64,000 nucleotides of DNA from Candidatus Hodarchaeota archaeon (GTDB lineage: Archaea; Asgardarchaeota; Lokiarchaeia; Sigyniarchaeales; SOKP01). Positions 31,282-46,482 of the stretch are shown here, in pieces. Made by a program: the position numbers and the translations under genes. Below the pieces are notes generated by a model. It had not been told where the DNA came from. It saw only the letters and a list, made by a program, of their open reading frames with translations, and searched no databases. Numbering within the stretch: the first letter of the stretch is position 1; the number at the start of each line of letters is the position of its first letter. The stretch lies in the NCBI GenBank assembly GCA_048887165.1, contig JBHLJZ010000006.1, positions 8,210-72,209 of the forward strand. Reading direction: 5' to 3'.

Positions 31282-32628
31282 TTATTCTATTAACTGTGTT
31301 TTCCCAGTACCCCATATTCCAAGAGCTTTACCTAATTCTTCATGATCCTTGGCATATTTACTAACCGAAATACCTTGCATAACCGCATCAATTGCTTGTC
31401 TAAACGCCTTTGCACCAGAAATGGGACCATCGGGATGACTATGAATACCTCCTCCACTTCCTATAAGTATGTCCAATCCAGCTTCTTTTATACATTTTTC
31501 TACCATACCTTGCGTTATTCCACCACTAGGCATTGGTAAGGTAGGTTTTATATGTTGGAATGGATACCTAAGAGCTTTTAAATTTTGTTCATATCTTTCT
31601 TCAAGAATTTCTGCCTTTCCATAAGGGGCGGGGATTACAACAGTATCTGCTCCACACATCCTAGGGAATTTTGCAAGTACTAACATCGAAGTCAGTCCAG
31701 TCCACTCACCTCCAATATATGCCCCACCAAAATCCATATGCCCTAAAATCGGTACTTTTATTGAAGGATCTTCGGCAATCGCTCTCAATGCTTCAAAACC
31801 TGAAGTTAGATAATTAAGCATTAATGCATTAGCTCCAAGTTCTATCATTTTATCAGCATATTCAAACATTTCGGGAAACTTTGTGGTAATATTAATAGTA
31901 TAAAGTGTTTTTTCTCCTTTTTCTGAATCTGCTCTGTCAACAGCTTCCATTACCTTCACAATTCTATCTTCTAACCTGTTAAAAGAAGGATCCGAAATCA
32001 ATTCGTCATCTTTCACAACATCACAGCCACCAACAGCTGCTTTATATACTAAATCAGCAGCAACTTCACAAGTGTGACCTGTACATGGTTTAACCATATT
32101 GTTTAATAAAGGGCGCTCTGGTATTTTCATAAGCTTTCTTATACCATCAATTCCAAATTTGGGTCCTTTAAATTCTTCAAGATATTCTTTTGGAAATGCT
32201 AAATCAACTAATTTTAAACCATGAGTTAAACTAATATTACCAATTACTGTAGTAAGAAGCATTGGGATTCCCATTCCTTTAATATTTACAATAGGGAAAC
32301 CAATCTGAGCGAAATAATATCGTTCTTTCACATCCTTTGGTATAACGTATTCATAATGAGGTAATTCATACACTCCAAGTACTCTTGCTACATGATATTT
32401 TCTAACTTCTTCGGTTTCTGCAGGAACTCTAACCCATGTTCCTGTTGATTGTTCTATTGCTGCAAATCTAGATAAGTAATTAACATTCATTCCTTTTGGT
32501 CTTTTAATAATGAAGCTTGCAATTATATATTTCTCCAAATCAATGCCGTCTAAGCCAATAGCTTCTGGGATATCAAAATATTTTTCTGTACTGTCCATAA
32601 TTATATCAAGAAAGTGTAATTTTTTCAA
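31282..32628 (-). CDS. RuBisCO large-subunit family protein, probably a RuBisCO-like protein (form IV-like) rather than a carboxylase
   Basis: 448 aa. EQSTGTWV, GNIS, VKDDE and the C-terminal GSGGGIHSHPDGPISGAKAFRQAIDAVMQG are very close to archaeal RbcL. However, VKPCTG replaces KPKxG, GHMDFGG replaces GHRAMH, and VVIPAPYG replaces LHVGT. The comparison is from my memory of form III sequences. Confidence 0.7.
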   Translation of the reverse strand: MKKLHFLDIIMDSTEKYFDIPEAIGLDGIDLEKYIIASFIIKRPKGMNVNYLSRFAAIEQSTGTWVRVPAETEEVRKYHVARVLGVYELPHYEYVIPKDVKERYYFAQIGFPIVNIKGMGIPMLLTTVIGNISLTHGLKLVDLAFPKEYLEEFKGPKFGIDGIRKLMKIPERPLLNNMVKPCTGHTCEVAADLVYKAAVGGCDVVKDDELISDPSFNRLEDRIVKVMEAVDRADSEKGEKTLYTINITTKFPEMFEYADKMIELGANALMLNYLTSGFEALRAIAEDPSIKVPILGHMDFGGAYIGGEWTGLTSMLVLAKFPRMCGADTVVIPAPYGKAEILEERYEQNLKALRYPFQHIKPTLPMPSGGITQGMVEKCIKEAGLDILIGSGGGIHSHPDGPISGAKAFRQAIDAVMQGISVSKYAKDHEELGKALGIWGTGKTQLIE

Positions 32629-32692: not shown

Positions 32693-33796
32693 TCAGTCTT
32701 TAGATTTAGTTCTGGATTTTAAATTCATATAAGTATTTTCGAGAACATTCAAATATTCAATTAGTACTTTATCTGCTTTAGATTTTTTCTCGTATTCTGC
32801 TTTAATGATATTCAATAGATATTTTGGAAAGATGAGATCTAAATAGAAATCCGTGAGTAAAGCATAATATTCATTACCTCTTTCATCTTGAAAAACTTGG
32901 ATCATTTGACTCTCCCAGAGCATTCTTAAAACTTCGTTTATATCTTCAACTCCTTTCTTTTTAAGCTTTTCAAGGTCATTCTTAGTAACTATCGCTGTTC
33001 TTAATAGCCTTAGAGTCTCATAAACTTGAGGATTAATGATAACATCGATAATTCTAAGATTATCTTGTTCTGAGGGTTTATATCCTTGGAAGAATTTCTT
33101 TGTTTCAGTTCTATAATCTTCAGCAAGTCGTATAGGCAAACCTCTATCAGCAGGATCTTTTAGAAGTTGTACAGGAGGAACTCTTAAGATTAAGATGTCA
33201 TTTGTCAAGAAAATTAATTCAGAAGGCATACCTTTTACTGATGTTTCCTTAATTATTTCTCGTTTAGTTAATTCAATTAGAACACTCTCTAAATTTAAGA
33301 ATCCTTGTTTATATTTATCTTTTAACCATAACATTAATTCTGATTTAGAAACTACACCCTCGTCTCTAAGCCGATTAATTATCATTCTCTTTATCTCATC
33401 TTGAAATATCATGGCCAATCTCTGTTCAGCATTAAGAGAAGGGTAAACTGATAGACTTCGGAATAATGAAGGAACCATCGTCAAATAATTATCATCTTCA
33501 AGATTCTGTAAAATAATCCTTGAAGTGTCAATTAAACCACCTTCATAAGCGTCGGGATCATCATCTAAGTTTAATAATAAAAGAATATAATAACCATTTT
33601 CTGGACCGGTATAATATGAAGCTATGTTCAATGAACCTACCATTAGACTTATCATTCCTGATTCTCCACTGTACTCATGAGTACTATATACCTGCATCAA
33701 AGTTTTTTCAGTTACAATAATTTCTTCAGGATATTTTGCCAGTATTTCAGTACCGATTCTTTCATTCCATTTCATTAAGACTAATCCTACAGGCAT
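32693..33796 (-). CDS. Cassette A, gene 2: cytoplasmic protein with an N-terminal longin/roadblock-like domain and two winged-helix-like domains (paralogue of 35734-36843)
   Basis: 367 aa, about 60% identical by eye to the 369-aa ORF at 35734-36843 (MPxGLxLMxW, MISLMVG.LNIAS.YTG, INRLRDEGVVSKSEL, SVKGMPSEL, KKGVEDI, EYYALL). Its ATG overlaps the stop of the upstream membrane-protein gene (TAATG). Domain assignment is by pattern only. Confidence 0.5.
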   Translation of the reverse strand: MPVGLVLMKWNERIGTEILAKYPEEIIVTEKTLMQVYSTHEYSGESGMISLMVGSLNIASYYTGPENGYYILLLLNLDDDPDAYEGGLIDTSRIILQNLEDDNYLTMVPSLFRSLSVYPSLNAEQRLAMIFQDEIKRMIINRLRDEGVVSKSELMLWLKDKYKQGFLNLESVLIELTKREIIKETSVKGMPSELIFLTNDILILRVPPVQLLKDPADRGLPIRLAEDYRTETKKFFQGYKPSEQDNLRIIDVIINPQVYETLRLLRTAIVTKNDLEKLKKKGVEDINEVLRMLWESQMIQVFQDERGNEYYALLTDFYLDLIFPKYLLNIIKAEYEKKSKADKVLIEYLNVLENTYMNLKSRTKSKD

Positions 33797-34227
33797 TATA
33801 TAACGCCTCCTCTTGATTCACCCATTTGAGGTAATTTCTTCTTTTTTTTTGATTCTAATCCTAATATAACTTCCAAAGATAAGCCTAGCATCGCCCATTT
33901 ATCTCCGAATTTCTTAACCATATGTTCTTGTTTTGAGGGATATAAAAGGGAATCTGATATTGACTTTCTACTCTTTATATTTTTACTTATTTCTCTTGCT
34001 CTTTTTACGAATATTGGAATTTTTGCTTTTTGAATTGCTATGTATATGACTAAACTCCCTACAACTGCAACTACTACAATTACTATCATTAGGAAGTAGA
34101 ATATTGGAAATCCAAACATTTCTACCATATCGACAATAACCGTCGAAAATAGTGCTAGCGTTGTAATTATTAATACTAAGAAAAGTAAGATTAAATATTT
34201 AGATTTTGAATTCGTTTTAAAACTCAT
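33796..34227 (-). CDS. Cassette A, gene 1: small two-TM membrane protein carrying the conserved TM + basic cytoplasmic tail module
   Basis: 143 aa with two hydrophobic helices. The tail, IQKAKIPIFVKRAREISKNIKSRKSISDSLLYPSKQEHMVKKFGDKWAMLGLSLEVILGL, is homologous to the C-terminus of the 1443-aa protein at 36843-41174. Confidence 0.6.
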   Translation of the reverse strand: MSFKTNSKSKYLILLFLVLIITTLALFSTVIVDMVEMFGFPIFYFLMIVIVVVAVVGSLVIYIAIQKAKIPIFVKRAREISKNIKSRKSISDSLLYPSKQEHMVKKFGDKWAMLGLSLEVILGLESKKKKKLPQMGESRGGVI

Positions 34228-34600: not shown

Positions 34601-35644
34601 ATGCTAAGACAAATTTATATCTTAAAAGACGGTAATGTTTTATACGAAAAGAACTTTGGAAAAGCGTTAACCCATGAGTCATTTCAAAATATTTCTCAGG
34701 AGATTTTAAAAGAGGCATCTCGAGGTTTGGGAAAGGATTTCGGAAGCACTTATTTTTTTAAACACAAAATCGTATATTCTTACGAGAAAGAATGCGGTTT
34801 ATTATTTATATTAATAGTGGGTTTAAACGATGAGATGAATCAAGTAAAATCAGAGATAACAAAGTTAAAAAATGAGTTTATAAACATTTTTGGAGATAAT
34901 CTTGATAATCTTGATACTTCTCTCATTGAGTTATTAAATCCTTTAATCTTTTCAATATATAAAAATATTAAAACAAAAATCTCTTTAGTAGGTTTTTCTG
35001 GAGTTGGGAAAACAACCATCACAAAATTAATCAGATCAGAAGAAATACCTGATGTACATATCCCTACCATAACTGGAAAAGTGTCAGCAATAAAGATAGG
35101 AAAATTGTATTTTCATTTATGGGATTTTGCTGGACAGGAACAATTTAGTTATTTATGGAATGATTTTATATATGGAAGTGATGCTGTTCTCGTAATAACT
35201 GATTCTTCATTAGAAAACGTTGAAAAGAGTAAATTTTTCATTGAATTACTAAAAGAAAATGCGCCAGATGCTCATGCTGCAATTATTGGAAATAAACAAG
35301 ATTTACCGGACGCCTTAAGTGTTGAAAAAATAGAAGAAATTCTTAAATTAAAAACTTATTCAATGATTGCTATAGATCCGGATAATCGCAATAAAATGAT
35401 TCAAATTATAGCAGACATATTAGAAATTAATACAGAGATATCACCATTACTAAAACCCCTTTTTGAAAGAGATTCTTTAATTTCTCAAGCTGAAACTTAT
35501 TTGAAAGAAGGAAACATGGTAAAAATTCACGAATCTTTTGAGAAAATCTCTGAGTTATGCTATGAACTAGGAGATTTCATTCTCTATAAAGAATTTCGTG
35601 AAAAAGCTGATAAAATTAAAGGACATTTAGGATATATTTTATGA
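34601..35644 (+). CDS. Longin-like domain fused to a Ras-superfamily small GTPase, with a C-terminal helical extension
   Basis: 347 aa. G-domain motifs are G1 GFSGVGKTT, switch-I PTITGK, G3 WDFAGQEQF and G4 GNKQDL. The N-terminal ~115 aa (IYILKDGNVLYEKNF...YFFKHKIVYSYEKECGLLFILIVGLNDEMNQVKSEITKLKNEFINIF) follow the longin profile. An ~80-aa helical tail follows the G domain. Confidence 0.65.
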   Translation: MLRQIYILKDGNVLYEKNFGKALTHESFQNISQEILKEASRGLGKDFGSTYFFKHKIVYSYEKECGLLFILIVGLNDEMNQVKSEITKLKNEFINIFGDNLDNLDTSLIELLNPLIFSIYKNIKTKISLVGFSGVGKTTITKLIRSEEIPDVHIPTITGKVSAIKIGKLYFHLWDFAGQEQFSYLWNDFIYGSDAVLVITDSSLENVEKSKFFIELLKENAPDAHAAIIGNKQDLPDALSVEKIEEILKLKTYSMIAIDPDNRNKMIQIIADILEINTEISPLLKPLFERDSLISQAETYLKEGNMVKIHESFEKISELCYELGDFILYKEFREKADKIKGHLGYIL

Positions 35645-35733: not shown

Positions 35734-36843
35734 TTATTTTTCTGATTCTGATTCTATTGGTAATTTAGTATGTCGGTAAGTATCTTCAAGTACTTTTAAA
35801 TATTCCAATAGAACGTTTTCAGATTTAGATTTTACCTCATATTGGTGCATTACCGTATTTAAGACATACTTAGGATATATTAAAGACATATGAAAGTCAG
35901 AAAGTAAAGCATAGTACTCAATACCGCGATTGTCTTGAAAAACATGAGCAAATTTATTTTCCCATAGTTTTCTTATTCCTTCATCGATATCTTCAACGCC
36001 CTTCTTTCTAAGTTTTGCTAAAGCGTTTTTAGTTACAACAGCAATTCTTAATAGTTTTAAAATTTCATAGATTTGTGGATCTGTAATTAAATCAATAATT
36101 TTTAAACTATCCTCTTCAGATGGGCGGTATGTCTGGAAAAAGCTCCGAACTTTTGACTTGTATTCACTTATAAGGCTTTCAGGAAGGCCTCTCTCTTCTG
36201 GCTTTTTTAACAACTTTATTGGAGGTCTCCTAATTATTAATGGATCATTAATAAGAAATAATAATTCTGAAGGCATCCCTTTTACTGAGGCTTCTTTTAT
36301 TATTTCTTTTTTAATTAATTCCATTAAAGTTGCATCTATATCAAAAAATCCTTTTCGATATTTATCCTTAAGCCATACTTTTAGCTCTGATTTCGAAACT
36401 ACACCTTCATCTCTTAATCTGTTGATTATCAATCGATTTACATCATCTTGGTAAGTTAAAGCTAAATTCTGCTCATCAGTTAAATAAGGATATGCGGAAA
36501 GTCTTTGAAATAGAAATGGTAGCATCTCCATATATGCATTATCTTCAATGTTTTGCATAATAATCCGAGAGATATCTGTCAGCCCTCCTTCATAAAGATC
36601 CGGATCATCTTCCAAACTTAAGAGAACAATTATGTATAATGATCTTTCTTTTCCTGTATAAAATGATGCTATATTCAAATGACCAACCATCAGACTAATC
36701 ATTCCTGGCTCTCCTGTATATTCATGAGCAGCATATATTTGCATTAAGGTTTCATCAGAGACTATTAATTCTTCAGGATATTTAGTAACAATTTCCGTTC
36801 CTACTTTAGGATCCCATCTCATCAATATTAATCCTAATGGCAT
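35734..36843 (-). CDS. Cassette B, gene 2: longin/roadblock-like + double winged-helix-like protein (paralogue of 32693-33796)
   Basis: 369 aa, full-length paralogue of 32693-33796, with the same TAATG stop/start overlap with the upstream gene. Confidence 0.5.
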   Translation of the reverse strand: MPLGLILMRWDPKVGTEIVTKYPEELIVSDETLMQIYAAHEYTGEPGMISLMVGHLNIASFYTGKERSLYIIVLLSLEDDPDLYEGGLTDISRIIMQNIEDNAYMEMLPFLFQRLSAYPYLTDEQNLALTYQDDVNRLIINRLRDEGVVSKSELKVWLKDKYRKGFFDIDATLMELIKKEIIKEASVKGMPSELLFLINDPLIIRRPPIKLLKKPEERGLPESLISEYKSKVRSFFQTYRPSEEDSLKIIDLITDPQIYEILKLLRIAVVTKNALAKLRKKGVEDIDEGIRKLWENKFAHVFQDNRGIEYYALLSDFHMSLIYPKYVLNTVMHQYEVKSKSENVLLEYLKVLEDTYRHTKLPIESESEK

Positions 36844-39800
36844 TATTCAGTATCTCCTCCATTTTTAATTAATTTATCCTTCCTTTTTGACATTTTAATC
36901 CTCATATCCTTTACTCCATAAACATCATCTAAAGAAAGACCTAACTCTTTCCATTCCTCTCCGAATAATTTTATCAAAGTCTCATCTTTCGAAGGAATAG
37001 AAATAGTTTCAGTTATAGGCTTTTTAGATTTTATATAGCCTTTCACTTTCCTGATCTTCTTAATATGTTTTGGAATTCGAGCTTGTTGAATTACTCTGTA
37101 TCCTACAAGACTACCAACAATACCTAAGGATCCAGCAACTATCAAAATGAAATAAAATGTAGGCATTCCAGGAAATACTTCTTTCATCTTTATTGTTATG
37201 GTGATATCGATTTCCTGAGTAGTAAAATTCGCTTTTTGAGCAAAGATTGTTCCTGGAAAAGTTTGTGAAATGAAGAAAGCTTGAATTTCATCAGTCTCAA
37301 AATTTAGTGTATAAGTACCAGGTGATTGTTCCTCGAAATAATAATCAATTTCTTGAGCGCGTAAAAAGACTGTAGCGTTTTCAAGAGGTATATATCCTCT
37401 AGATTCATCCATTAAATTGATTGTAATTTCGATATCATTTCCCTGAACGGCGCTAACTTGCTTTCCTTTAATATTAGTGGCATCAAGAGTATAATCAATC
37501 TCTCGATACCTAATTTCTAAATTAATAAGAGCAAATCTAGATTCGTAATTATTCTTTTGGAGATTGATATACAGAAAATAGAATCCAACACTCCTTATTT
37601 CAGTATTGAAATCCAATGAATAAGTTTTGTCTGCTTTTTGACTTAATATTCCAGAGCCATCAATTCCGGGGATAATTGATCCATTCGAATATAATTTTTG
37701 CCATGTATAAGAAGCAATATCTAAATCTCCAAGTATTTGACCACCTAATAACGTATCAGCATAGGAATAAGTAAAGTTTATTTCATCCTCAACCCATATC
37801 CAAGGGTTAGAATATGCGATAAATGAACTTCCATTTATAGTTGTTGGTCTCTCTAGAACTTCAAGAAATGTGTTAATTGTCTTTGATGTATAATTTTCTT
37901 TCAAGGCTGTTATTGTGATTGGATACTTACCAACATTTATCGCTAAACTTGTATTAATAGTACAGTAATAATAGTTATCATCAATAGGATCTTCAATAAA
38001 ATAAATGAGTGGTTGAGTAAGCCAATCAAATGTAATTGTTGCTCCATCTAATTTACTATCTGGAGGTACATAATATCTAACTGTAATATTAATGATTTCA
38101 CTAAACTCTTTTTCTAGTTCTGATATTTGTAGATGTGTAGCATAATCGTATAAATCTAGACTTGTTGCTGTAGCATTCACTCTTACCTGGTGATAATAAG
38201 GTTCTGGAGATTCATATCCTGGTACTAAGCCATCAATTATAAACCAGTAGTTTTTATAATTATTTCCAGCAGATAATTTACTTGAATTAATAGTAAGAGA
38301 ATAATTCATTAAAGTAAGGCCTTCATAATTTGCTGTTAAATCTACTATTAATACTGTTTGACCAGTATCCCAATCTTCTATATAACATGTAAAGAATCCT
38401 TCATCAGGCACTAAGTACCAATTAGTTCCATCGTCAGAATATGATATATTAATAGTTATATGTAAATCTCCAATACCCCATATTGCTTGCGAAATTTCAG
38501 CAATTATATCTATCTGAGTTTCTAATGTAGGTGGTGGGGGAGTTGCTTCATAATCAAGTATAATAGATGAATTTTGGTTCAATGTGTAATTATATTCAGA
38601 AACTTCTCCAAGAGGTTCCCATTGTTTTGGAGATGTGTTATTTACTGTAAAGTTAGCTGCAACTCCAATTCTCCTAAGTGTTATATTATAACTAAATCCA
38701 ATTCGAAATATAAAAGGTTCATATTCAGTATCGCTATGAGACGCCCAGCCATCGTTGTTTGTAGTTAAAGTTGTGATAATTGTTGTACCATTCCAGATTC
38801 TTACACTAACAAAAGGAACGGGATTATATGAATCATCATCATCAATAACCCTTACATTCATTTTAGATAAAGCTGTTTTGTTATAGATGTTAGTTAATTC
38901 TGTAGTATTGATCTTTATTATACCTGTATGAGCTCCAGCATTATAACCTTGAACATCAACTAATATACCATAAACTTCGTAATTCTCTCCCTTTAATTTA
39001 TCATTATCAACTGTTCCAATATCGATAGATTTAAAATATGATGTGCCTGACATAGATAGATTTTGATAAATTATATTCCCTGATGTTTGATTATATTTGT
39101 CAATATAGTAAATTGTCATATTATCAATCTGTTGATCCATCGATTCCAACGTTATATTAAAATTAATCAGCTTCTTATTGCTAAAATCACTCATCGATCC
39201 TCCGGTGTAAATACGTTCATTAACTTTATAATAATCTCCAGGATCTTGGTCGTAAATATTTAGGGATAATGAATGGTCAAAATACTTATCATATTGGGTG
39301 TAGTCAGATCGGTAAATGTAGCTTGAATTCAAAAGAAAATCATTAACATTATATCTTGTGTTATAGAAGAAAACCTCATAATAGTAAAATGATGCATTAT
39401 TCCATCGAAATCTTGCTGTACCATTAACTAGTGATATCTGCTTTAATAGAGTACCTCCACTATCATTGTAGACCTTCACGTATCCATCATCAAAAAGATC
39501 ATCATCCCAATCTACTATTTCAAAATCAATTGTCCAAATGTCCAGATATAAATCATATATATGGGATAATTCAGATACATTGTATAAATTCCAACTAGAT
39601 GTTCCAAAATTATCTCTTGTACTATTGAATACTTCATCTTCATAACTAGGGATAAAAGTATAATTCACAGAGAAGTTATATATGCCAAAATTTAAACCAG
39701 TAAAGATTGTTTGACCTGTTTGATCAGTAGTTTGCTTTTTTATTAATGTTGTATCCTGCATTAATGAAACTTCGGCATTTGGAACAATCATACCATCAAT

Positions 39801-41174
39801 ATCCCGAGCTATAACAGTAATATCGGATTTTTGTGTCTGTATCTCATTTAATTCAACTGTTATATCATCACTATAAGTGAATTCAACATCATCAACTTGG
39901 ACAAAAGCAGTATCATAATTACCCACAGTATTTTCATCACCATACATTCCAAATTCTAATGAAATGTTTTGACCCATATAATTACTTAGATCAAATGTTA
40001 CTAAACCTGTTAAATCACCTTGGGATGTATCAAAAGTTCCTGTTATTATACCAGTAGTGTAATTTTGTAATGAATAATAACCTTTATTATTATGAGTAAT
40101 TCCCTTAAAATATTCTAAATACTCACCAATTTGTTGATGTTGATCTGGATCGACGAATAGATTGGAAGCATTAATTACTCGAACAAAATATCCATCATTC
40201 CAAGCCTTAGATGAACTCCCATCAAATCCCCAAGTTTTAACGTTCTGCCAGAATCTTATATAAATACTCCCACTACCATCATTAACAATTGGAACGGTAA
40301 ACGGGTTGGTATAAAAAACTCCAGCATATTGATCGTCGTTACCCACACTTTCAGTTATTGAAGTTTGATTCGAACCCCATTTATAAGTATATGTTCCTCT
40401 TACTTGTTCTACGCCTCCAGGTACGTCAATTAAACAATTTTGCCACCATTCAGTTGCTTGATCTTCAGTTTGTGAATCTTCTCCCACATCTGGAGGTCTG
40501 GGTGCAATATCATCAGGTACATCATCAGACCAATTCCATCCTACTGGATTATAATAGTGAGGTGTTATTGACGGATCACCAGTTGGATCGTCCCCACTCG
40601 GCACATATTCGAAGTCCCCATTTTTTACTAATCCAATACCATACTCAACTGCAGTAGTCTCAACATCCATATTTCCATAGTATAAATATACATCAGTTTC
40701 GGTATTACTAGAGGCAGAAAGATTTGTATTGAAATATATTGCTGCGTCGCCTATTGAATAATCTTCACCATTGAAATCTTGAAAAATGTAAAACTCTCTT
40801 TCAATCGGTTCATTATTGATATATTCTATGACTCTTATATCTTTTAAAGTATCATTTACTTTACCTTGATATTCAGGATCTCCATAAGGAAGATTTACAA
40901 CAACTCCATAATTTTTTAGGTCTACACCAGCTAGATTTGTTATATTTACTAGTGACCTATAAGGCCAATCAGAATCCCACCATGGATGATCACCAGCAAT
41001 ACTTGATCTAGGATTTAATATTGTATCATCAAACTCATTCTCACCTATAGGATTCAACTCAAAGAGAAATGGAGCTAAACTATAGTAAATGCTCCCAGAA
41101 GTTATCGCTATTAATATAACCGACAGTGAAAGTAGTTTTGTAATCTTTTTTTTTCTATTCATAGTTTCTATCAC
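36843..41174 (-). CDS. Cassette B, gene 1: giant type-I surface glycoprotein (DUF2341-like, carboxypeptidase-regulatory-like and Ig-like beta domains) with the conserved TM + cytoplasmic tail module
   Basis: 1443 aa from the GTG at 41174; ATG at 41162 is more likely (MNRKKKITKLLSLSVILIAITSG, a signal/anchor). WWDSDWPYRSLVNITN...DIRVIEY...VYLYYGN resembles DUF2341. DITVIARDIDGMIVPNAEVSL...TDQTGQTIFTGLNFGIYNF resembles a CarboxypepD_reg fold. There are dozens of NxS/T sequons. The C-terminal TM is FYFILIVAGSLGIVGSLVGY, followed by the basic tail. Confidence 0.6.
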   Translation of the reverse strand: MIETMNRKKKITKLLSLSVILIAITSGSIYYSLAPFLFELNPIGENEFDDTILNPRSSIAGDHPWWDSDWPYRSLVNITNLAGVDLKNYGVVVNLPYGDPEYQGKVNDTLKDIRVIEYINNEPIEREFYIFQDFNGEDYSIGDAAIYFNTNLSASSNTETDVYLYYGNMDVETTAVEYGIGLVKNGDFEYVPSGDDPTGDPSITPHYYNPVGWNWSDDVPDDIAPRPPDVGEDSQTEDQATEWWQNCLIDVPGGVEQVRGTYTYKWGSNQTSITESVGNDDQYAGVFYTNPFTVPIVNDGSGSIYIRFWQNVKTWGFDGSSSKAWNDGYFVRVINASNLFVDPDQHQQIGEYLEYFKGITHNNKGYYSLQNYTTGIITGTFDTSQGDLTGLVTFDLSNYMGQNISLEFGMYGDENTVGNYDTAFVQVDDVEFTYSDDITVELNEIQTQKSDITVIARDIDGMIVPNAEVSLMQDTTLIKKQTTDQTGQTIFTGLNFGIYNFSVNYTFIPSYEDEVFNSTRDNFGTSSWNLYNVSELSHIYDLYLDIWTIDFEIVDWDDDLFDDGYVKVYNDSGGTLLKQISLVNGTARFRWNNASFYYYEVFFYNTRYNVNDFLLNSSYIYRSDYTQYDKYFDHSLSLNIYDQDPGDYYKVNERIYTGGSMSDFSNKKLINFNITLESMDQQIDNMTIYYIDKYNQTSGNIIYQNLSMSGTSYFKSIDIGTVDNDKLKGENYEVYGILVDVQGYNAGAHTGIIKINTTELTNIYNKTALSKMNVRVIDDDDSYNPVPFVSVRIWNGTTIITTLTTNNDGWASHSDTEYEPFIFRIGFSYNITLRRIGVAANFTVNNTSPKQWEPLGEVSEYNYTLNQNSSIILDYEATPPPPTLETQIDIIAEISQAIWGIGDLHITINISYSDDGTNWYLVPDEGFFTCYIEDWDTGQTVLIVDLTANYEGLTLMNYSLTINSSKLSAGNNYKNYWFIIDGLVPGYESPEPYYHQVRVNATATSLDLYDYATHLQISELEKEFSEIINITVRYYVPPDSKLDGATITFDWLTQPLIYFIEDPIDDNYYYCTINTSLAINVGKYPITITALKENYTSKTINTFLEVLERPTTINGSSFIAYSNPWIWVEDEINFTYSYADTLLGGQILGDLDIASYTWQKLYSNGSIIPGIDGSGILSQKADKTYSLDFNTEIRSVGFYFLYINLQKNNYESRFALINLEIRYREIDYTLDATNIKGKQVSAVQGNDIEITINLMDESRGYIPLENATVFLRAQEIDYYFEEQSPGTYTLNFETDEIQAFFISQTFPGTIFAQKANFTTQEIDITITIKMKEVFPGMPTFYFILIVAGSLGIVGSLVGYRVIQQARIPKHIKKIRKVKGYIKSKKPITETISIPSKDETLIKLFGEEWKELGLSLDDVYGVKDMRIKMSKRKDKLIKNGGDTE

Positions 41175-42699: not shown

Positions 42700-43785
42700 A
42701 TGGCACAAAATTTAATTGTTTTAGGAGAACTCCATCAAGATTTATATTATGAAACTGATTTTTATGAGGATCTAGTAGAAAAAATTGTTTCTAATATTAC
42801 AAACTTTGTAAGATACAATCCTGATGATATAAGTAAAAAAATTCTTGAAAAATTGGTGCAAAGAGGATTCTCAGATACTCCAAAAAAAATTGAAGGCCGC
42901 TGTTTTTTCAAAAGAGGAGGTAATGGAAATAACTCTTCTGAATATTTTGCAAGTTTGGGAGTTCCAACTAAACTTATATCTGTGATTGGAAGGGGAAGTG
43001 AATGGATGATTGATGAACTGAAGGAACTAGGGATAAATACTGACTCAATATTTCAGATAGATGAAATAACACCTGTAAGTACCATTATTAAATCAAAATT
43101 TACTACAAAAATACATTTAGCTCCAAACCTAAAAGAAAAGATGAATTTTGATGGATTGAATATATCTAATGGATTATTGGATAATGCAAAGTTAATATTT
43201 TCAACTCCTATAGCACAAAAATTTATAAATTTATTTAATAGAGGTGCAAATTCTGGATTAATTACCGCCTTTAATATTGAAAGACAAAAAATTCATACTT
43301 TAGAAGAACTCTCAGAATTAATTAAGGAGAAAAAACATTTATCTTTTCTTAATGTAAAAGATGCCTATCGAATTTTAGATAAAAAACTTTCAATAGATGA
43401 AGTAGATGAAATCTTTAAACAATTTGCACAAATCCGAATTTATACTGCAGGGAAAGATGGCTCCTATGTGTTTACAGACTATCTGAAGATTTTTTATCCC
43501 GGGATAGAAGTAGAAGCAATAATTGATAGAACGGGTGCAGGCGATTGCTATGCTGCGGGTTTTTTAACTAAATTATATGAACTTGTCGAAGATAAAAATC
43601 ATTTAGAACAATTACTTAAAAAGGAAAAATTAGAAATAACTAAGAAAATTCTAACTTCATGTATTGAATACAGTACTCATGCAGCAATATATAAAATAAC
43701 TAAACAAACTACTCCAACCAAAATTGAAATGGATAATTTTATTAAAACTTTTAAAATTAAGAATAAATTAAATGTTATTGAATAA
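42700..43785 (+). CDS. PfkB-family carbohydrate/nucleoside kinase
   Basis: 361 aa with GGNGNNSS (GG motif region) and the C-terminal IDRTGAGDCYAAGF (DxxGAGD motif). Confidence 0.75.
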   Translation: MAQNLIVLGELHQDLYYETDFYEDLVEKIVSNITNFVRYNPDDISKKILEKLVQRGFSDTPKKIEGRCFFKRGGNGNNSSEYFASLGVPTKLISVIGRGSEWMIDELKELGINTDSIFQIDEITPVSTIIKSKFTTKIHLAPNLKEKMNFDGLNISNGLLDNAKLIFSTPIAQKFINLFNRGANSGLITAFNIERQKIHTLEELSELIKEKKHLSFLNVKDAYRILDKKLSIDEVDEIFKQFAQIRIYTAGKDGSYVFTDYLKIFYPGIEVEAIIDRTGAGDCYAAGFLTKLYELVEDKNHLEQLLKKEKLEITKKILTSCIEYSTHAAIYKITKQTTPTKIEMDNFIKTFKIKNKLNVIE

Positions 43786-44707
43786 TCTGTAAGATAAGAT
43801 TCTCCATTTGGGGTTTTGCAGCTTCAATCTTATCTAATACTTCAACAGTCTGTCCTAAATCTTCTTCATTTTCTTCAATTATGAATAATAAGTAGAAATC
43901 TAAATTTCCAAACTTTAGAACCTCAACTACACCAGAATATCTGTCTCCATTTTCAAACTTATCAGAAAATTCAAATAATGTCCTATTTTCATCAATTATT
44001 TTCTTTTGAGCTTCCAAATATTTATCATAAATTCTCATTTTTTCGGTAAGATGCAGATGAGGGCGGTAAAATTCTCCAATTGTTATTCCTTTTACATCAA
44101 ACAATGAAATCATAATAGCATTGTAATTTTTACTTATTTCAGCAAATAATTGTGATACCATCTCTATTTTGTCAAACAGTAAAGAAAGCCCACTTGAAAA
44201 TGCATCCATTACAGATTTAATGTCATATATAGTTGTTTCAAAGAAAAAAATATCAAAATCATGACTATATCGTGTTAAAGCTTGCTTAATTGTCAAAATT
44301 CTCTGATTTATAACTCTATCTTTAACAAGTTGGGGATCAAATTTGTGGAACAATATACAAATCGGAGGATATTCTTGCTCTTCTTTAAAGTAAAGTAATA
44401 ATCGATCAATATAATCTATAGATTCAACATATCGATCGAAATCTTGTGCATCAATGACATAAAAAACTAAATCTGTTCCTGCAATATACTTATTAGGCTT
44501 TTTTAAGTATTCTTCTCTATATTGCGATTGACCTCCAAAATCCATCCTTACAAACTCAACACCTAAAAATTTAAAGGCGTCTCGAGCAACTTTTCTTGTT
44601 GGCATTAATTTCGAGACTTCCTCTTCAAATCCAAATCTTTTTGTGATAACAGTAATTATACTAGTTTTACCTGCATTATCTAATCCTAAGAAAGCAATTT
44701 TTTGCAA
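43775..44707 (-). CDS. Rag/Gtr1-family GTPase (G domain + C-terminal roadblock domain)
   Basis: 310 aa. G-domain motifs are G1 GLDNAGKTS, G3 DFGGQSQY and a Rag-type G4 HKFD (ICILFHKFDP, compared with RagA CLVHKMDL). TTIYDIKSVMDAFSSGLSLL is collinear with RagA [19 protein letters not shown]. The C-terminal ~130 aa alpha/beta domain has the size of the Rag roadblock dimerisation domain. Confidence 0.8.
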   Translation of the reverse strand: MQKIAFLGLDNAGKTSIITVITKRFGFEEEVSKLMPTRKVARDAFKFLGVEFVRMDFGGQSQYREEYLKKPNKYIAGTDLVFYVIDAQDFDRYVESIDYIDRLLLYFKEEQEYPPICILFHKFDPQLVKDRVINQRILTIKQALTRYSHDFDIFFFETTIYDIKSVMDAFSSGLSLLFDKIEMVSQLFAEISKNYNAIMISLFDVKGITIGEFYRPHLHLTEKMRIYDKYLEAQKKIIDENRTLFEFSDKFENGDRYSGVVEVLKFGNLDFYLLFIIEENEEDLGQTVEVLDKIEAAKPQMENLILQIIQ

Positions 44708-44856
44708 TTAAATACATCACCAAAGTAACCGGATAAATGATTCCTAATTATATAATCTGCAAATTAATTATGGCACTATGGACTAATAAATACTTACATT
44801 TCTTGGGAAAAAAGGGATCTTTTTATAATAAGTTCTAATAATTAAAACGATACAGA

Positions 44857-45138
44857 TTAACCGCCTGAAATTGGAAATGATAAATAAATTTTATCTCCAT
44901 CAGTAAGTTTTGTTTTGTAATTTTTTAAATAAGTAATATTTCTACCATTTAACAAAATTACCATCTGAGGATTTAACTTTGTCTTATTTTTGTTCAATAT
45001 ACTATCATCCAAATTTTCTTTATAATCTTTAAGAAATTGTGATATAATATCTCCAACCGTCTTACCTTCATATTCAATAGTATTTTTCTTAACTTTCAAC
45101 GCAAATATATTCAGAAGATTTAATTCGACTCTTGCCAT
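44857..45138 (-). CDS. MoaD/ThiS/SAMP-type ubiquitin-like beta-grasp protein with a C-terminal Gly-Gly
   Basis: 93 aa ending in ILLNGRNITYLKNYKTKLTDGDKIYLSFPISGG. The pattern (vN......L.dGDei...PpvsGG) is characteristic of sulfur-carrier/Ubl proteins. Confidence 0.8.
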   Translation of the reverse strand: MARVELNLLNIFALKVKKNTIEYEGKTVGDIISQFLKDYKENLDDSILNKNKTKLNPQMVILLNGRNITYLKNYKTKLTDGDKIYLSFPISGG

Positions 45139-45243: not shown

Positions 45244-46482
45244 TTATAAAATTTTAATTTCTTCAACATCTTCAATATATTTACTAATTAAATCATCAAG
45301 TTTCAAGGAATAATATATCTCTTTCAATTTTTCATAATTAAATTCTTGATTTCTCGGTTTGAAATGGCAATAATCAAATTTTTTGAATTCGGTTGAGATT
45401 TGATTTGAAATTTCAGTGATCTTTTCAAAATCTGATCCAATATTGGGAGTAAATATTGGAAAATGGGAGAATAAGTAATTAAGAGATATTGTCTCTAGTT
45501 CTATTTCATCTGGACATAAGGTTGATTTATTTAGACTAACACCATCTATTATTCCCACTGATTTACGTAAATCAAGAAATTTAGAAATTTCCAATAATCT
45601 TGCTAAAATATTAAGCCTAACTAGCTTACAGATACTACAATAATGTTGTTTATCCTCAATTCTTTCAAAAATTCTTTCTAAAATGTGAAATAAATCCACT
45701 TTTAATAATCTAAAGTTATTTAACGGAAAATAATCTCTTATGATTTCCCAATTGGATACCCAATTTTTAAAATAATTATTATTGTTCATATTATCAAATA
45801 ATACAGGATAAATCACACAACCTCTTCTCATCATTAAAAATCCAGCAACGATATCATTTATTCTACCAATATCCATTACTATTACTTTCTTCGGAGGTTC
45901 TATCGGTAAACCTCCCCAATTATTTCTTATAATTTGGGAGAAAATGTAAGCAAATTCATCTCTAACTTCTATATATATTTTTTTGTTAGGATTAGTTAAA
46001 TTTACTTTTAAATTCAATTCTTTCATATTATCTAAAATTTCTTGTCCAACAACTTTGGCAATTTCCAATGAATTATAATCATGTTTACCAGATCTTTTTA
46101 TTCTAAGAGCGAATGAATCATGATGCTGTAAAATCTCTTTCGCTGCTTCAATTGTTCTCTCTGAAATATTTTTAAGGTTGGATGAGGTTCTAAGTGCAGG
46201 ACTTATAGAATATATTCCAAATACATTTTTTAAAATGTTAATAGCATCAATTAAATCCTCATTGTTAAAAAAAAAGAAAATTCGTGAAGAATCTTTACTT
46301 AATTGATATTTATGAAAAGAAATGTTATTGCGATTGAGTACTTTCTTAATATTATTCATTAATATCTTCAACATTCGAATCTTAACTTTTTGAGATTTAA
46401 GCCAAATTTCTCCATATCGGATTAAAATTAAATTATATTGCTTTAAAATCTGTATTTTATCCATGTTTAACATGAAATCCAA
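45244..46482 (-). CDS. ThiI-like THUMP-domain protein with a degenerate PP-loop
   Basis: 412 aa. The N-terminal ferredoxin-like and THUMP domains are present (LILIRYGEIWLKSQKV, FALRIKRSGKHDYNSLEIAKVVGQ, GGLPIEP). Where ThiI has LLSGGIDSPVAGYLMMKRG, this protein has VMDIGRINDIVAGFLMMRRG. A CxxC motif is retained (HYCSICK). Confidence 0.7.
   Translation of the reverse strand: MDFMLNMDKIQILKQYNLILIRYGEIWLKSQKVKIRMLKILMNNIKKVLNRNNISFHKYQLSKDSSRIFFFFNNEDLIDAINILKNVFGIYSISPALRTSSNLKNISERTIEAAKEILQHHDSFALRIKRSGKHDYNSLEIAKVVGQEILDNMKELNLKVNLTNPNKKIYIEVRDEFAYIFSQIIRNNWGGLPIEPPKKVIVMDIGRINDIVAGFLMMRRGCVIYPVLFDNMNNNNYFKNWVSNWEIIRDYFPLNNFRLLKVDLFHILERIFERIEDKQHYCSICKLVRLNILARLLEISKFLDLRKSVGIIDGVSLNKSTLCPDEIELETISLNYLFSHFPIFTPNIGSDFEKITEISNQISTEFKKFDYCHFKPRNQEFNYEKLKEIYYSLKLDDLISKYIEDVEEIKIL

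Follow-up and report, generated by a model that had tools for sequence, protein, structure and literature searches.

A probable Rag/Gtr-family GTPase with a C-terminal roadblock domain in a Lokiarchaeial contig

Introduction

Rag GTPases form in eukaryotes the amino-acid-sensing switch that acts upstream of TORC1, and their Asgard relatives provide one argument that components of the signalling and membrane machinery of eukaryotes arose before eukaryogenesis. Here we report on a gene for such a small GTPase in a 64,000-nucleotide stretch of DNA from Candidatus Hodarchaeota archaeon (GenBank assembly GCA_048887165.1, contig JBHLJZ010000006.1, positions 8,210 to 72,209), hereafter called the window. 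The gene lies on the minus strand at 43775..44707, and its product is very probably an Asgard (Promethearchaeota/Lokiarchaeia) Rag/Gtr GTPase, in which a roadblock domain follows the GTPase domain in the order and with the geometry of RagA and Gtr1. An earlier reading of the sequence, referred to below as the original prediction, had already proposed a stand-alone Rag/Gtr1-type GTPase at this place.

The gene and its nucleotide-binding motifs

The window is AT-rich (G+C content of about 30%) and its gene content is archaeal, including genes for ribosomal protein S25e, for a RuBisCO presumably of form III type, and for ThiI and a protein of the SAMP/MoaD-like kind. The Rag gene is an open reading frame (ORF) of 310 amino acids (aa) with a TTG start, present exactly as originally predicted, and its identification draws on the Pfam model Gtr1_RagA and on fold matches to RagA, Gtr1 and RagC. 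A deposited protein (MFX0056839.1 / MFX0175127.1) is 100% identical to its product, and the same contig context is also found in assembly GCA_048886165.1. This identical protein, together with orthologues in at least 80 genomes (see below), shows this to be a genuine gene that is subject to selection.

The GTPase (G) domain covers residues 1-180 (44168..44707, minus strand), as indicated by a Ras-like alpha/beta fold in the structural model, by the profile alignment with RagA and by the tree. It holds the G1 motif or P-loop GLDNAGKT (residues 8-15, 44663..44686), a switch I with Pro36-Thr37, the G3/switch II motif DFGGQ with Gln60 in the catalytic position (residues 56-60, 44528..44542), the G4 motif HKFD (residues 121-124, 44336..44347) and a G5-equivalent TTIYD (residues 158-162, 44222..44236), which the profile alignment makes collinear with TSIWD of RagA. 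G1, the switch I Thr, G3 and G5 are intact and nearly invariant across the family; in an alignment of 81 members, G8, G13 and K14 of the P-loop are invariant or nearly so, and Gln60 is found in 77 of the 81. The remainder of the gene (43775..44167) encodes the C-terminal roadblock domain (CRD), residues 181-310, and the stop codon; this domain was delimited from the secondary structure of the model (DSSP), the profile and Foldseek matches.

The G4 motif is the Rag-type variant of NKxD. Its His is present in 75/81 family members, and HKxD occurs in all Rag/Gtr references that were checked: RagA and Gtr1 (HKMD), RagC and Gtr2 (HKVD), and the two Lokiarchaeal proteins LokiRagO (HKFD) and LokiRagM (HKID), whose crystal structures (8yl2 and 8zla/9m28, respectively) were deposited in 2025-2026. 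Arf1, Sar1b, Arl3, Arl8b, HRas and Rab7a all have NKxD instead, so that the use of HKxD as a Rag hallmark by the original prediction was justified. The region which it quoted after G4, FFETTIYDIKSVMDAFSSGLSLLFDKIEMVSQLFAEI, is indeed part of the translation, and the RagA string set beside it matches a real RagA chain of the PDB and is collinear with the family profile.

The N terminus of the protein reads MQKIAFLG, strand beta1 begins at residue 2 in the model and there is no Arf-type amphipathic helix, while the C terminus ends in LQIIQ and has no Cys (lipidation) motif.

Family assignment by sequence and profile

Among Pfam models, Gtr1_RagA (PF04670) matched the protein best, with 81.2 bits (cut-off 22) over residues 3-209. 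Arf came second with 55.6 bits and matched only residues 3-130. The Gtr1_RagA model also recognized each of 81 diverse family members (81/81). The family is large, since a representative search yielded 1035 clusters at 50% identity with E<=1e-3, of which 49 had E<=1e-30. When the single sequence was searched against the PDB, two sets of entries named "GTP-binding proteins" came far in front, namely 8yl2 (E = 6e-38) and 8zla/9m28 (E = 3e-23), followed by Sar1/Arl proteins at about 1e-8 and then by Gtr1/RagC at about 1e-5.

A family profile, built from the 81-sequence alignment obtained in an exhaustive representative search, extended these matches over the whole chain. Against PDB chains it scored 310 bits with 8yl2 and 230 bits with 8zla. 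Human RagA was matched with 135 bits over positions 4-297, thus with its C-terminal domain included, Gtr1 with 115-122 bits, and Gtr2 and RagC with about 100 bits. Arl3 reached 87 bits and was aligned over positions 5-128 only. The features that separate a Rag from an Arf sit downstream of residue 130 or so.

Predicted structure of the full-length protein

The AlphaFold2 model of the protein is of high confidence, with a mean predicted local distance difference test (pLDDT) of 93.3, a predicted template modelling score (pTM) of 0.90 and every residue at or above 70. Residues 182-309 are modelled (pLDDT 81-94) as alpha-beta-beta-alpha-beta-beta-beta-alpha, which is the roadblock order. As assigned by DSSP, the elements of the CRD are helix 182-195, strands 197-204 and 209-214, helix 220-239, strands 244-250, 256-266 and 269-278, and helix 284-309. 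The roadblock fold that had been suggested for the last 130 residues or so is hence borne out by the topology of the model and by its superposition on known Rags.

In a Foldseek search of the PDB, LokiRagO (8yl2) was the top match (E = 1e-25, template modelling (TM) score 0.76-0.82). It was accompanied by RagA (6s6a_A, E = 1e-19, TM 0.75; 6u62_B, TM 0.78) and RagC (6ulg_G, TM 0.78), and Gtr1 of both Schizosaccharomyces pombe and Saccharomyces cerevisiae was likewise matched. Superposition of the whole model on RagA, Gtr1 and RagC gave TM scores of 0.75-0.78 over about 300 aligned columns. Arf/Arl structures covered the G domain alone (TMq 0.44-0.47). LokiRagM (8zla/9m28) matches in sequence, but the orientation of its domains differs and the TM score was 0.42.

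The roadblock fold is shared by the CRD of Rags and by MglB, and MglA-like GTPases have been described in Asgards (PMC10933270), so that a polarity module of the MglA/MglB type condensed in one chain, with a GTPase fused to a roadblock regulator acting in cis, may be envisaged. We regard this reading as hardly credible. The domains of the model are oriented as in Rag/Gtr chains, the 50 best Foldseek matches include no MglA/MglB entry, and MglA is the most distant of all sequences compared (local score 39), serving as an outgroup in the tree.

Phylogeny and the Arf-like alternative

A neighbour-joining (NJ) tree was computed from the G domain only (179 columns, 40 taxa, 100 bootstraps). The references RagC, Gtr1 and Gtr2 were 100% identical to PDB chains 6ulg_G, 4arz_A and 4arz_B, and the sequences of RagA, LokiRagO and LokiRagM were taken from printed profile alignments. 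The Asgard family and the eukaryotic RagA, RagC, Gtr1 and Gtr2 were monophyletic in 82 of 100 bootstraps, and the eukaryotic Rag/Gtr proteins by themselves in 86. A grouping of the Asgard family with Arf/Sar/Arl was obtained in a single replicate out of 100. The position within the Rag/Gtr clade that the original prediction implied was thus recovered. LokiRagO and LokiRagM fall on branches other than that of the window protein.

This placement agrees with a published maximum-likelihood tree, in which the eukaryotic RagGtr proteins, comprising two paralogues that predate the last eukaryotic common ancestor, are nested among Asgard relatives (bioRxiv 10.1101/2024.02.28.582541). Judging from both trees, the duplication that gave rise to RagA and RagC in eukaryotes is younger than their split from the Asgard relatives (NJ tree; bioRxiv 10.1101/2024.02.28.582541).

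Several observations weigh against a Rag/Gtr identity and have to be set beside the above. At the level of the single sequence, the G domain is, in its N-terminal half, equally close to Sar1/Arl3 and to Rags: the P-loop GLDNAGKT is that of Sar1 and Arl3, and local scores are higher with Sar1b (140) and Arl3 (129) than with RagA (118). With the profile, G-domain chains of RagC/RagD score 83-84 bits, which is no better than the 87 bits of Arl3. The next relative outside the orthologue group (P0132, described below) has NKFD in G4, so that the Rag-type His is not indispensable and can revert while the gene is kept. Moreover, the outgroup sequences of the tree (Arf1, Sar1b, Arl3, Arl8b, HRas, Rab7a and MglA) were entered in unverified form, and the tree itself is a distance (neighbour-joining) tree with a small sampling in columns and taxa. 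As the G-domain scores overlap with those of Arl3, the discrimination between Arf and Rag relies on G4, G5, the C-terminal domain and the tree.

The reading at stake here is that of an Arf-like (ArfL/ArfR-type) GTPase with an additional C-terminal domain, as publicly annotated: the identical deposited protein is named "ADP-ribosylation factor-like protein" at NCBI, a label that can be explained by the likeness of the first 130 residues or so to Sar1/Arl3 and by the identical P-loop. The Arf score in Pfam and the rank of Sar1b, which is the best non-Asgard PDB match of the single sequence, speak in the same direction. Indeed, Arf/Sar/Arl proteins, the Asgard ArfR included, are very similar to the window protein over G1-G3 (about 130 residues). 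However, the Arf matches end near residue 130, ahead of G4; members of the Arf family have NKxD and an amphipathic helix at the N terminus and lack a roadblock domain, whereas the window protein has HKFD, no such helix and a roadblock domain of 130 residues, and its full-length fold is that of Rag/Gtr proteins. Considered along with the bootstraps given above, these differences make an Arf-like identity very improbable, and it can be taken as largely refuted already. The public label is therefore misleading and imprecise.

Orthologues and distant relatives

A scan of species-representative genomes with a 12-sequence alignment retrieved an orthologue in at least 80 Promethearchaeota genomes, among them a complete 3.3-Mb chromosome, with one locus each and 71-91% identity. 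The best 120 database matches are 75-93% identical to the window Rag. At the same loci, the median identity is 79% for S25e and 76% for a Metallophos protein, and identities are 55-63% for a methyltransferase, PfkB and ThiI. The degree of conservation of the Rag is thus comparable to that of a ribosomal protein such as S25e. The NCBI taxon labels of near-identical orthologues are mostly Promethearchaeota, yet they also include Hodarchaeota, Thorarchaeota, Odinarchaeota, Heimdallarchaeota, Hermodarchaeota and even 'Candidatus Nanopelagicaceae bacterium'; at phylum level, the labelling of these metagenome-assembled genome submissions looks unreliable.

The next relative, P0132 (locus L086:5001-5930), is 56% identical, shares the synteny and represents the closest outgroup orthologue. 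Relatives at 33-43% identity are found in other gene contexts. Two of the latter, P0134 (507 aa) and P0136 (501 aa), which are 41-43% identical to the window Rag, have the Rag G and roadblock domains preceded, in one chain, by a DUF4062 domain, with an additional weak TIR_2 match in P0136. This DUF4062-Rag fusion is not mentioned in the papers used here. Other relatives of about 400 aa have an N-terminal extension of about 100 residues that has no Pfam match.

Genomic neighbourhood and promoter

The gene directly upstream of the Rag gene, on the same strand (44857..45138, minus), encodes a ubiquitin-fold protein of 93 aa that ends in GG and resembles SAMP/MoaD/ThiS proteins (Pfam ThiS; NCBIfam moaD_arch 49.8 bits and SAMP1 44.5 bits), with a weak Urm1 match as well. 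This arrangement is conserved in 76/77 testable loci, with a median gap of 159 nucleotides (nt). ThiI adjoins the SAMP/MoaD-like gene (45244-46482, minus) and is present in 40 orthologous loci. Downstream, S25e lies in convergent orientation in 76.

The immediate downstream neighbour in the window is a convergent gene for a PfkB-family sugar/nucleoside kinase (42700..43785, plus strand; Pfam PfkB), whose 3' end overlaps that of the Rag gene by 11 nt (43775..43785, from the ORF coordinates), as originally described. PfkB is next to the Rag gene in 31/74 orthologous loci. A Rag relative of only 33% identity (locus L089) also adjoins a convergent PfkB gene (L089:3441-4439), with a gap of 10 nt, and the two kinases are 40% identical (E = 1e-78). 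No PfkB gene was found beside the distant Rag relatives P0207, P0154, P0133, P0135 and P0139, and the adjacency is regarded as sporadic. Small convergent genes adjoin P0133 and P0135; they are mutually unrelated and have no significant Pfam match. As for the kinase itself, its best NCBIfam matches are nucleoside kinase and ribose-1-phosphate kinase; they are far under the cut-offs, as for every NCBIfam equivalog, and a motif DTPKKIxGR...KRGGNGNNS marks a distinct PfkB subfamily.

The spacer of 149 nt that separates the SAMP-like gene from the Rag gene begins with a T-tract just past the upstream gene, followed by a putative promoter element, GTAAGTATTTATTAG, which resembles a TATA box/transcription factor B recognition element (BRE) (44783..44797, minus strand). 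This element lies some 77 nt ahead of the start codon, is unique in the window and proved conserved when orthologous upstream regions were aligned. Its core, ATTTATTA, was found in 31/40 orthologous upstream spacers, and in 30 of them at 64-92 nt before the start. A Shine-Dalgarno-like GGTGAT (44716..44721, minus strand) can be recognized in the sequence 8 nt upstream of the TTG start, and a GGTGA-like motif is present in 24/40 orthologous upstream regions. Because a T-tract and then a conserved TATA-like box occupy the spacer, co-transcription with the SAMP-like gene is unlikely, and the Rag gene probably forms a separate transcription unit under a predicted archaeal TATA/BRE-type promoter. 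Transcription would then start from a conserved promoter of its own. A scan for sigma-70 promoters and intrinsic terminators gave 13 sites where 13.2 were expected, these models being uninformative for an archaeon.

Relation to known Rags and probable oligomeric state

RagGtr is an established group of Asgard GTPases, described since 2016, with the eukaryotic Rags nested inside it (bioRxiv 10.1101/2024.02.28.582541). We refer here to the RagGtr group of Klinger et al. (2016) in the form in which it is used by Vargova et al. (bioRxiv 10.1101/2024.02.28.582541). 'Rag-like' architectures that combine a GTPase and a roadblock domain have also been modelled in MK-D1 (Tran et al., 2024, PMC10933270). 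The window Rag fits the definition of RagGtr and the architecture of these Rag-like forms, including the switch II insert (PMC10933270). To the extent that they are used here, the RagGtr studies treat the group as a whole, and the single-copy orthologue of the window with its fixed neighbourhood is not singled out in them. The gene leaves the evolutionary picture unchanged, since that picture is already established by this literature and by the crystal structures of two Lokiarchaeal paralogues; what we describe adds a well-conserved member to a known Rag/Gtr class and is not a new kind of system.

LokiRagO and LokiRagM come from the same archaeal lineage and, like the window Rag, consist of an HKxD G domain followed by a roadblock domain. 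The identity of the window Rag is 39.5% with LokiRagO and 33% with LokiRagM, to be compared with 71-91% among orthologues, and both sit on other branches of the tree; they are therefore paralogues. LokiRagO has about 40 extra residues at the N terminus and LokiRagM about 75 at the C terminus. According to the titles of their PDB entries, from which the oligomeric descriptions used here are taken, 8yl2 is a 'homo-tetrameric RagA-like small GTPase from Asgard Lokiarchaeota' and 8zla/9m28 a 'monomeric Rag-like small GTPase'.

The eukaryotic RagA/B-Gtr1 and RagC/D-Gtr2 proteins share with the window Rag the HKxD motif, a G5 of the form T(S/T)I(W/Y/F)D, the switch II insert, the CRD and collinearity over the full length, although the identity is only 25-30%. 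Their P-loops differ, being GxSGSGKT or GxRRxGKS in eukaryotic Rags and Arf/Sar-like (GLDNAGKT) in the window Rag. They also form heterodimers, whereas the window Rag pre-dates the A/C duplication and would thus be devoid of a dedicated heterodimer partner.

The presence of a single Rag gene had been set against the obligate heterodimers of eukaryotes, a contrast that could be read as an oddity. A phmmer search of all six-frame ORFs of the 64-kb window found no Rag-type ORF other than the gene itself, so that the observation of one gene holds for the window alone. The oddity, on the other hand, is weakened by the later date of the A/C duplication and by the Lokiarchaeal paralogues, one a homo-tetramer and the other a monomer. 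On these grounds we consider a homo-oligomer similar to that of LokiRagO as the likeliest state of the window Rag, because it pre-dates the A/C duplication and because the oligomeric Lokiarchaeal paralogue is a homo-tetramer.

Pairing with a second Rag paralogue from another place in the genome, instead of a homo-oligomer, is doubtful but has some grounds. Lokiarchaeal genomes hold multiple Rag-like paralogues, one operon pair of MK-D1 being predicted to heterodimerise through its roadblock domains (PMC10933270). The family of 1035 clusters is large, and LokiRagO and LokiRagM are themselves paralogues. Nevertheless, no second Rag is adjacent in the window, nor was a further one seen among the homologues of the flanking genes of the window at the 80 orthologous loci. 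Furthermore, the A/C split is internal to eukaryotes, and the sole oligomeric structure of a Lokiarchaeal Rag is a homo-tetramer.

Whether as a homo-oligomer or as part of a pair, the protein would function as a GTP/GDP switch, with the roadblock domain mediating self-association or pairing as the CRDs of Rags do. Given that it has neither an N-terminal amphipathic helix nor a C-terminal lipidation motif, it would be targeted to membranes or effectors only through partner proteins. An output on TORC1 as in eukaryotes may not be assumed, as Asgards have been reported without a TOR kinase (no mTOR homologue is reported in them). The eukaryotic partners of Rags also include a roadblock scaffold (Ragulator/EGO) and longin-domain GTPase-activating proteins (GATOR1, FLCN-FNIP); beside the Rag gene of the window, no such scaffold is evident. 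A core regulatory role is suggested by the strong constraint on the gene and by its single copy within the lineage. Asgard small GTPases mostly have a patchy distribution and evolve fast; by comparison, the single copy, the conservation and the fixed neighbourhood of the window Rag make it a sensible candidate for functional work in cultured Lokiarchaeia.

Longin-winged-helix paralogues in the wider region

At 7-11 kb from the Rag gene, the original prediction had pointed to longin/roadblock-type proteins. Two genes on the minus strand are concerned, one of 367 aa (32693-33796) and one of 369 aa (35734-36843), whose products are paralogues with 62% identity. Each overlaps the stop of its upstream gene, which encodes for the former a protein of 143 aa (33796-34227, minus) with sub-threshold Pfam matches mostly to membrane-protein families, and for the latter a surface protein of 1443 aa (36843-41174, minus) with Ig-like and CarboxypepD_reg matches. 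Between the two paralogues lies, on the plus strand, an Arf-like GTPase with NKQD in G4 and an N-terminal extension of 120 residues (34601-35644). Both paralogue families comprise hundreds of Promethearchaeota sequences at 64-89% identity, all annotated 'hypothetical', and the region is syntenic in relatives.

The model of the 367-aa protein has a pLDDT of 75 and a pTM of 0.41 over the whole chain. Its residues 1-116, with means of about 77-91 over blocks of 10 residues, are arranged as beta-beta-alpha-beta-beta-beta-alpha-alpha, a longin-type topology, and are followed by two winged-helix-like (helix/beta-hairpin) modules. This part of the initial description stood, although neither protein has a Pfam match at E<=1 (NPR2/NPR3 included) or an NCBIfam match, and a profile of the family retrieved nothing among PDB sequences at E<=10. 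The name "longin-winged-helix (WH)" therefore seems reasonable for the pair. The four best PDB fold matches of the 367-aa model are GATOR1 chains, of lengths that fit NPRL2/NPRL3 (E = 1e-3 to 3e-3, TM about 0.21), with generic longin domains close behind; the resemblance to NPRL2/3 may be taken as a lead.

A link of the Rag with this pair, as an archaeal GTPase-activating protein (GAP) and GTPase module like GATOR1-Rag, would find some encouragement in the longin-type domain, which is confidently modelled and followed by the winged-helix-like modules, in the GATOR1 chains that head the fold search and in the nearby paralogue, reminiscent of the pair formed by NPRL2 and NPRL3. Asgards are reported to have NPRL2-like proteins, and the synteny extends over the wider region. 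Yet we find such a module quite unlikely. The Foldseek matches are marginal and the whole-chain model is of low pTM, and sequence searches, profile included, gave no NPR2/NPR3 or PDB match. The arginine finger of NPRL2, which we take to be Arg78, would lie in the beta4-beta5 loop of the longin domain. The loop of the 367-type, as equated by secondary structure only, reads TGPEKG with an invariant Pro65, and that of the 369-type, equated in the same way, has Arg65 in 71/113 sequences and Lys/Arg67; neither family has an invariant Arg there.

Position does not favour the module either. Four genes unrelated to it (surface protein of 1443 aa, methyltransferase, S25e and PfkB) stand between the longin-WH pair and the Rag gene, and the Arf-like GTPase at 34601-35644, flanked by the pair and much closer to it, is a more natural partner. 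Distant Rag relatives have no longin-WH neighbours, and no adjacent roadblock or longin gene was encountered in any inspected Rag locus. Nothing beyond lineage-wide synteny links the Rag gene to the longin-WH genes, and no functional tie is indicated.

A wider scheme would make the Rag the GTPase arm of a pre-eukaryotic axis for nutrient or metabolic sensing, with the longin-WH pair as its GATOR1-like GAP and an output wired, in place of TOR, to the SAMP/MoaD-like protein and ThiI (sulfur-carrier and tRNA-thiolation functions) and to PfkB. We hold this scheme to be highly unlikely. A conserved Rag/Gtr GTPase remains the reading preferred here.

Directly beside the longin-WH cluster, the window also encodes a homologue of the RuBisCO large subunit (31282-32628, minus strand; Pfam RuBisCO_large, 165 bits), presumably of the archaeal form III or of the RuBisCO-like type.

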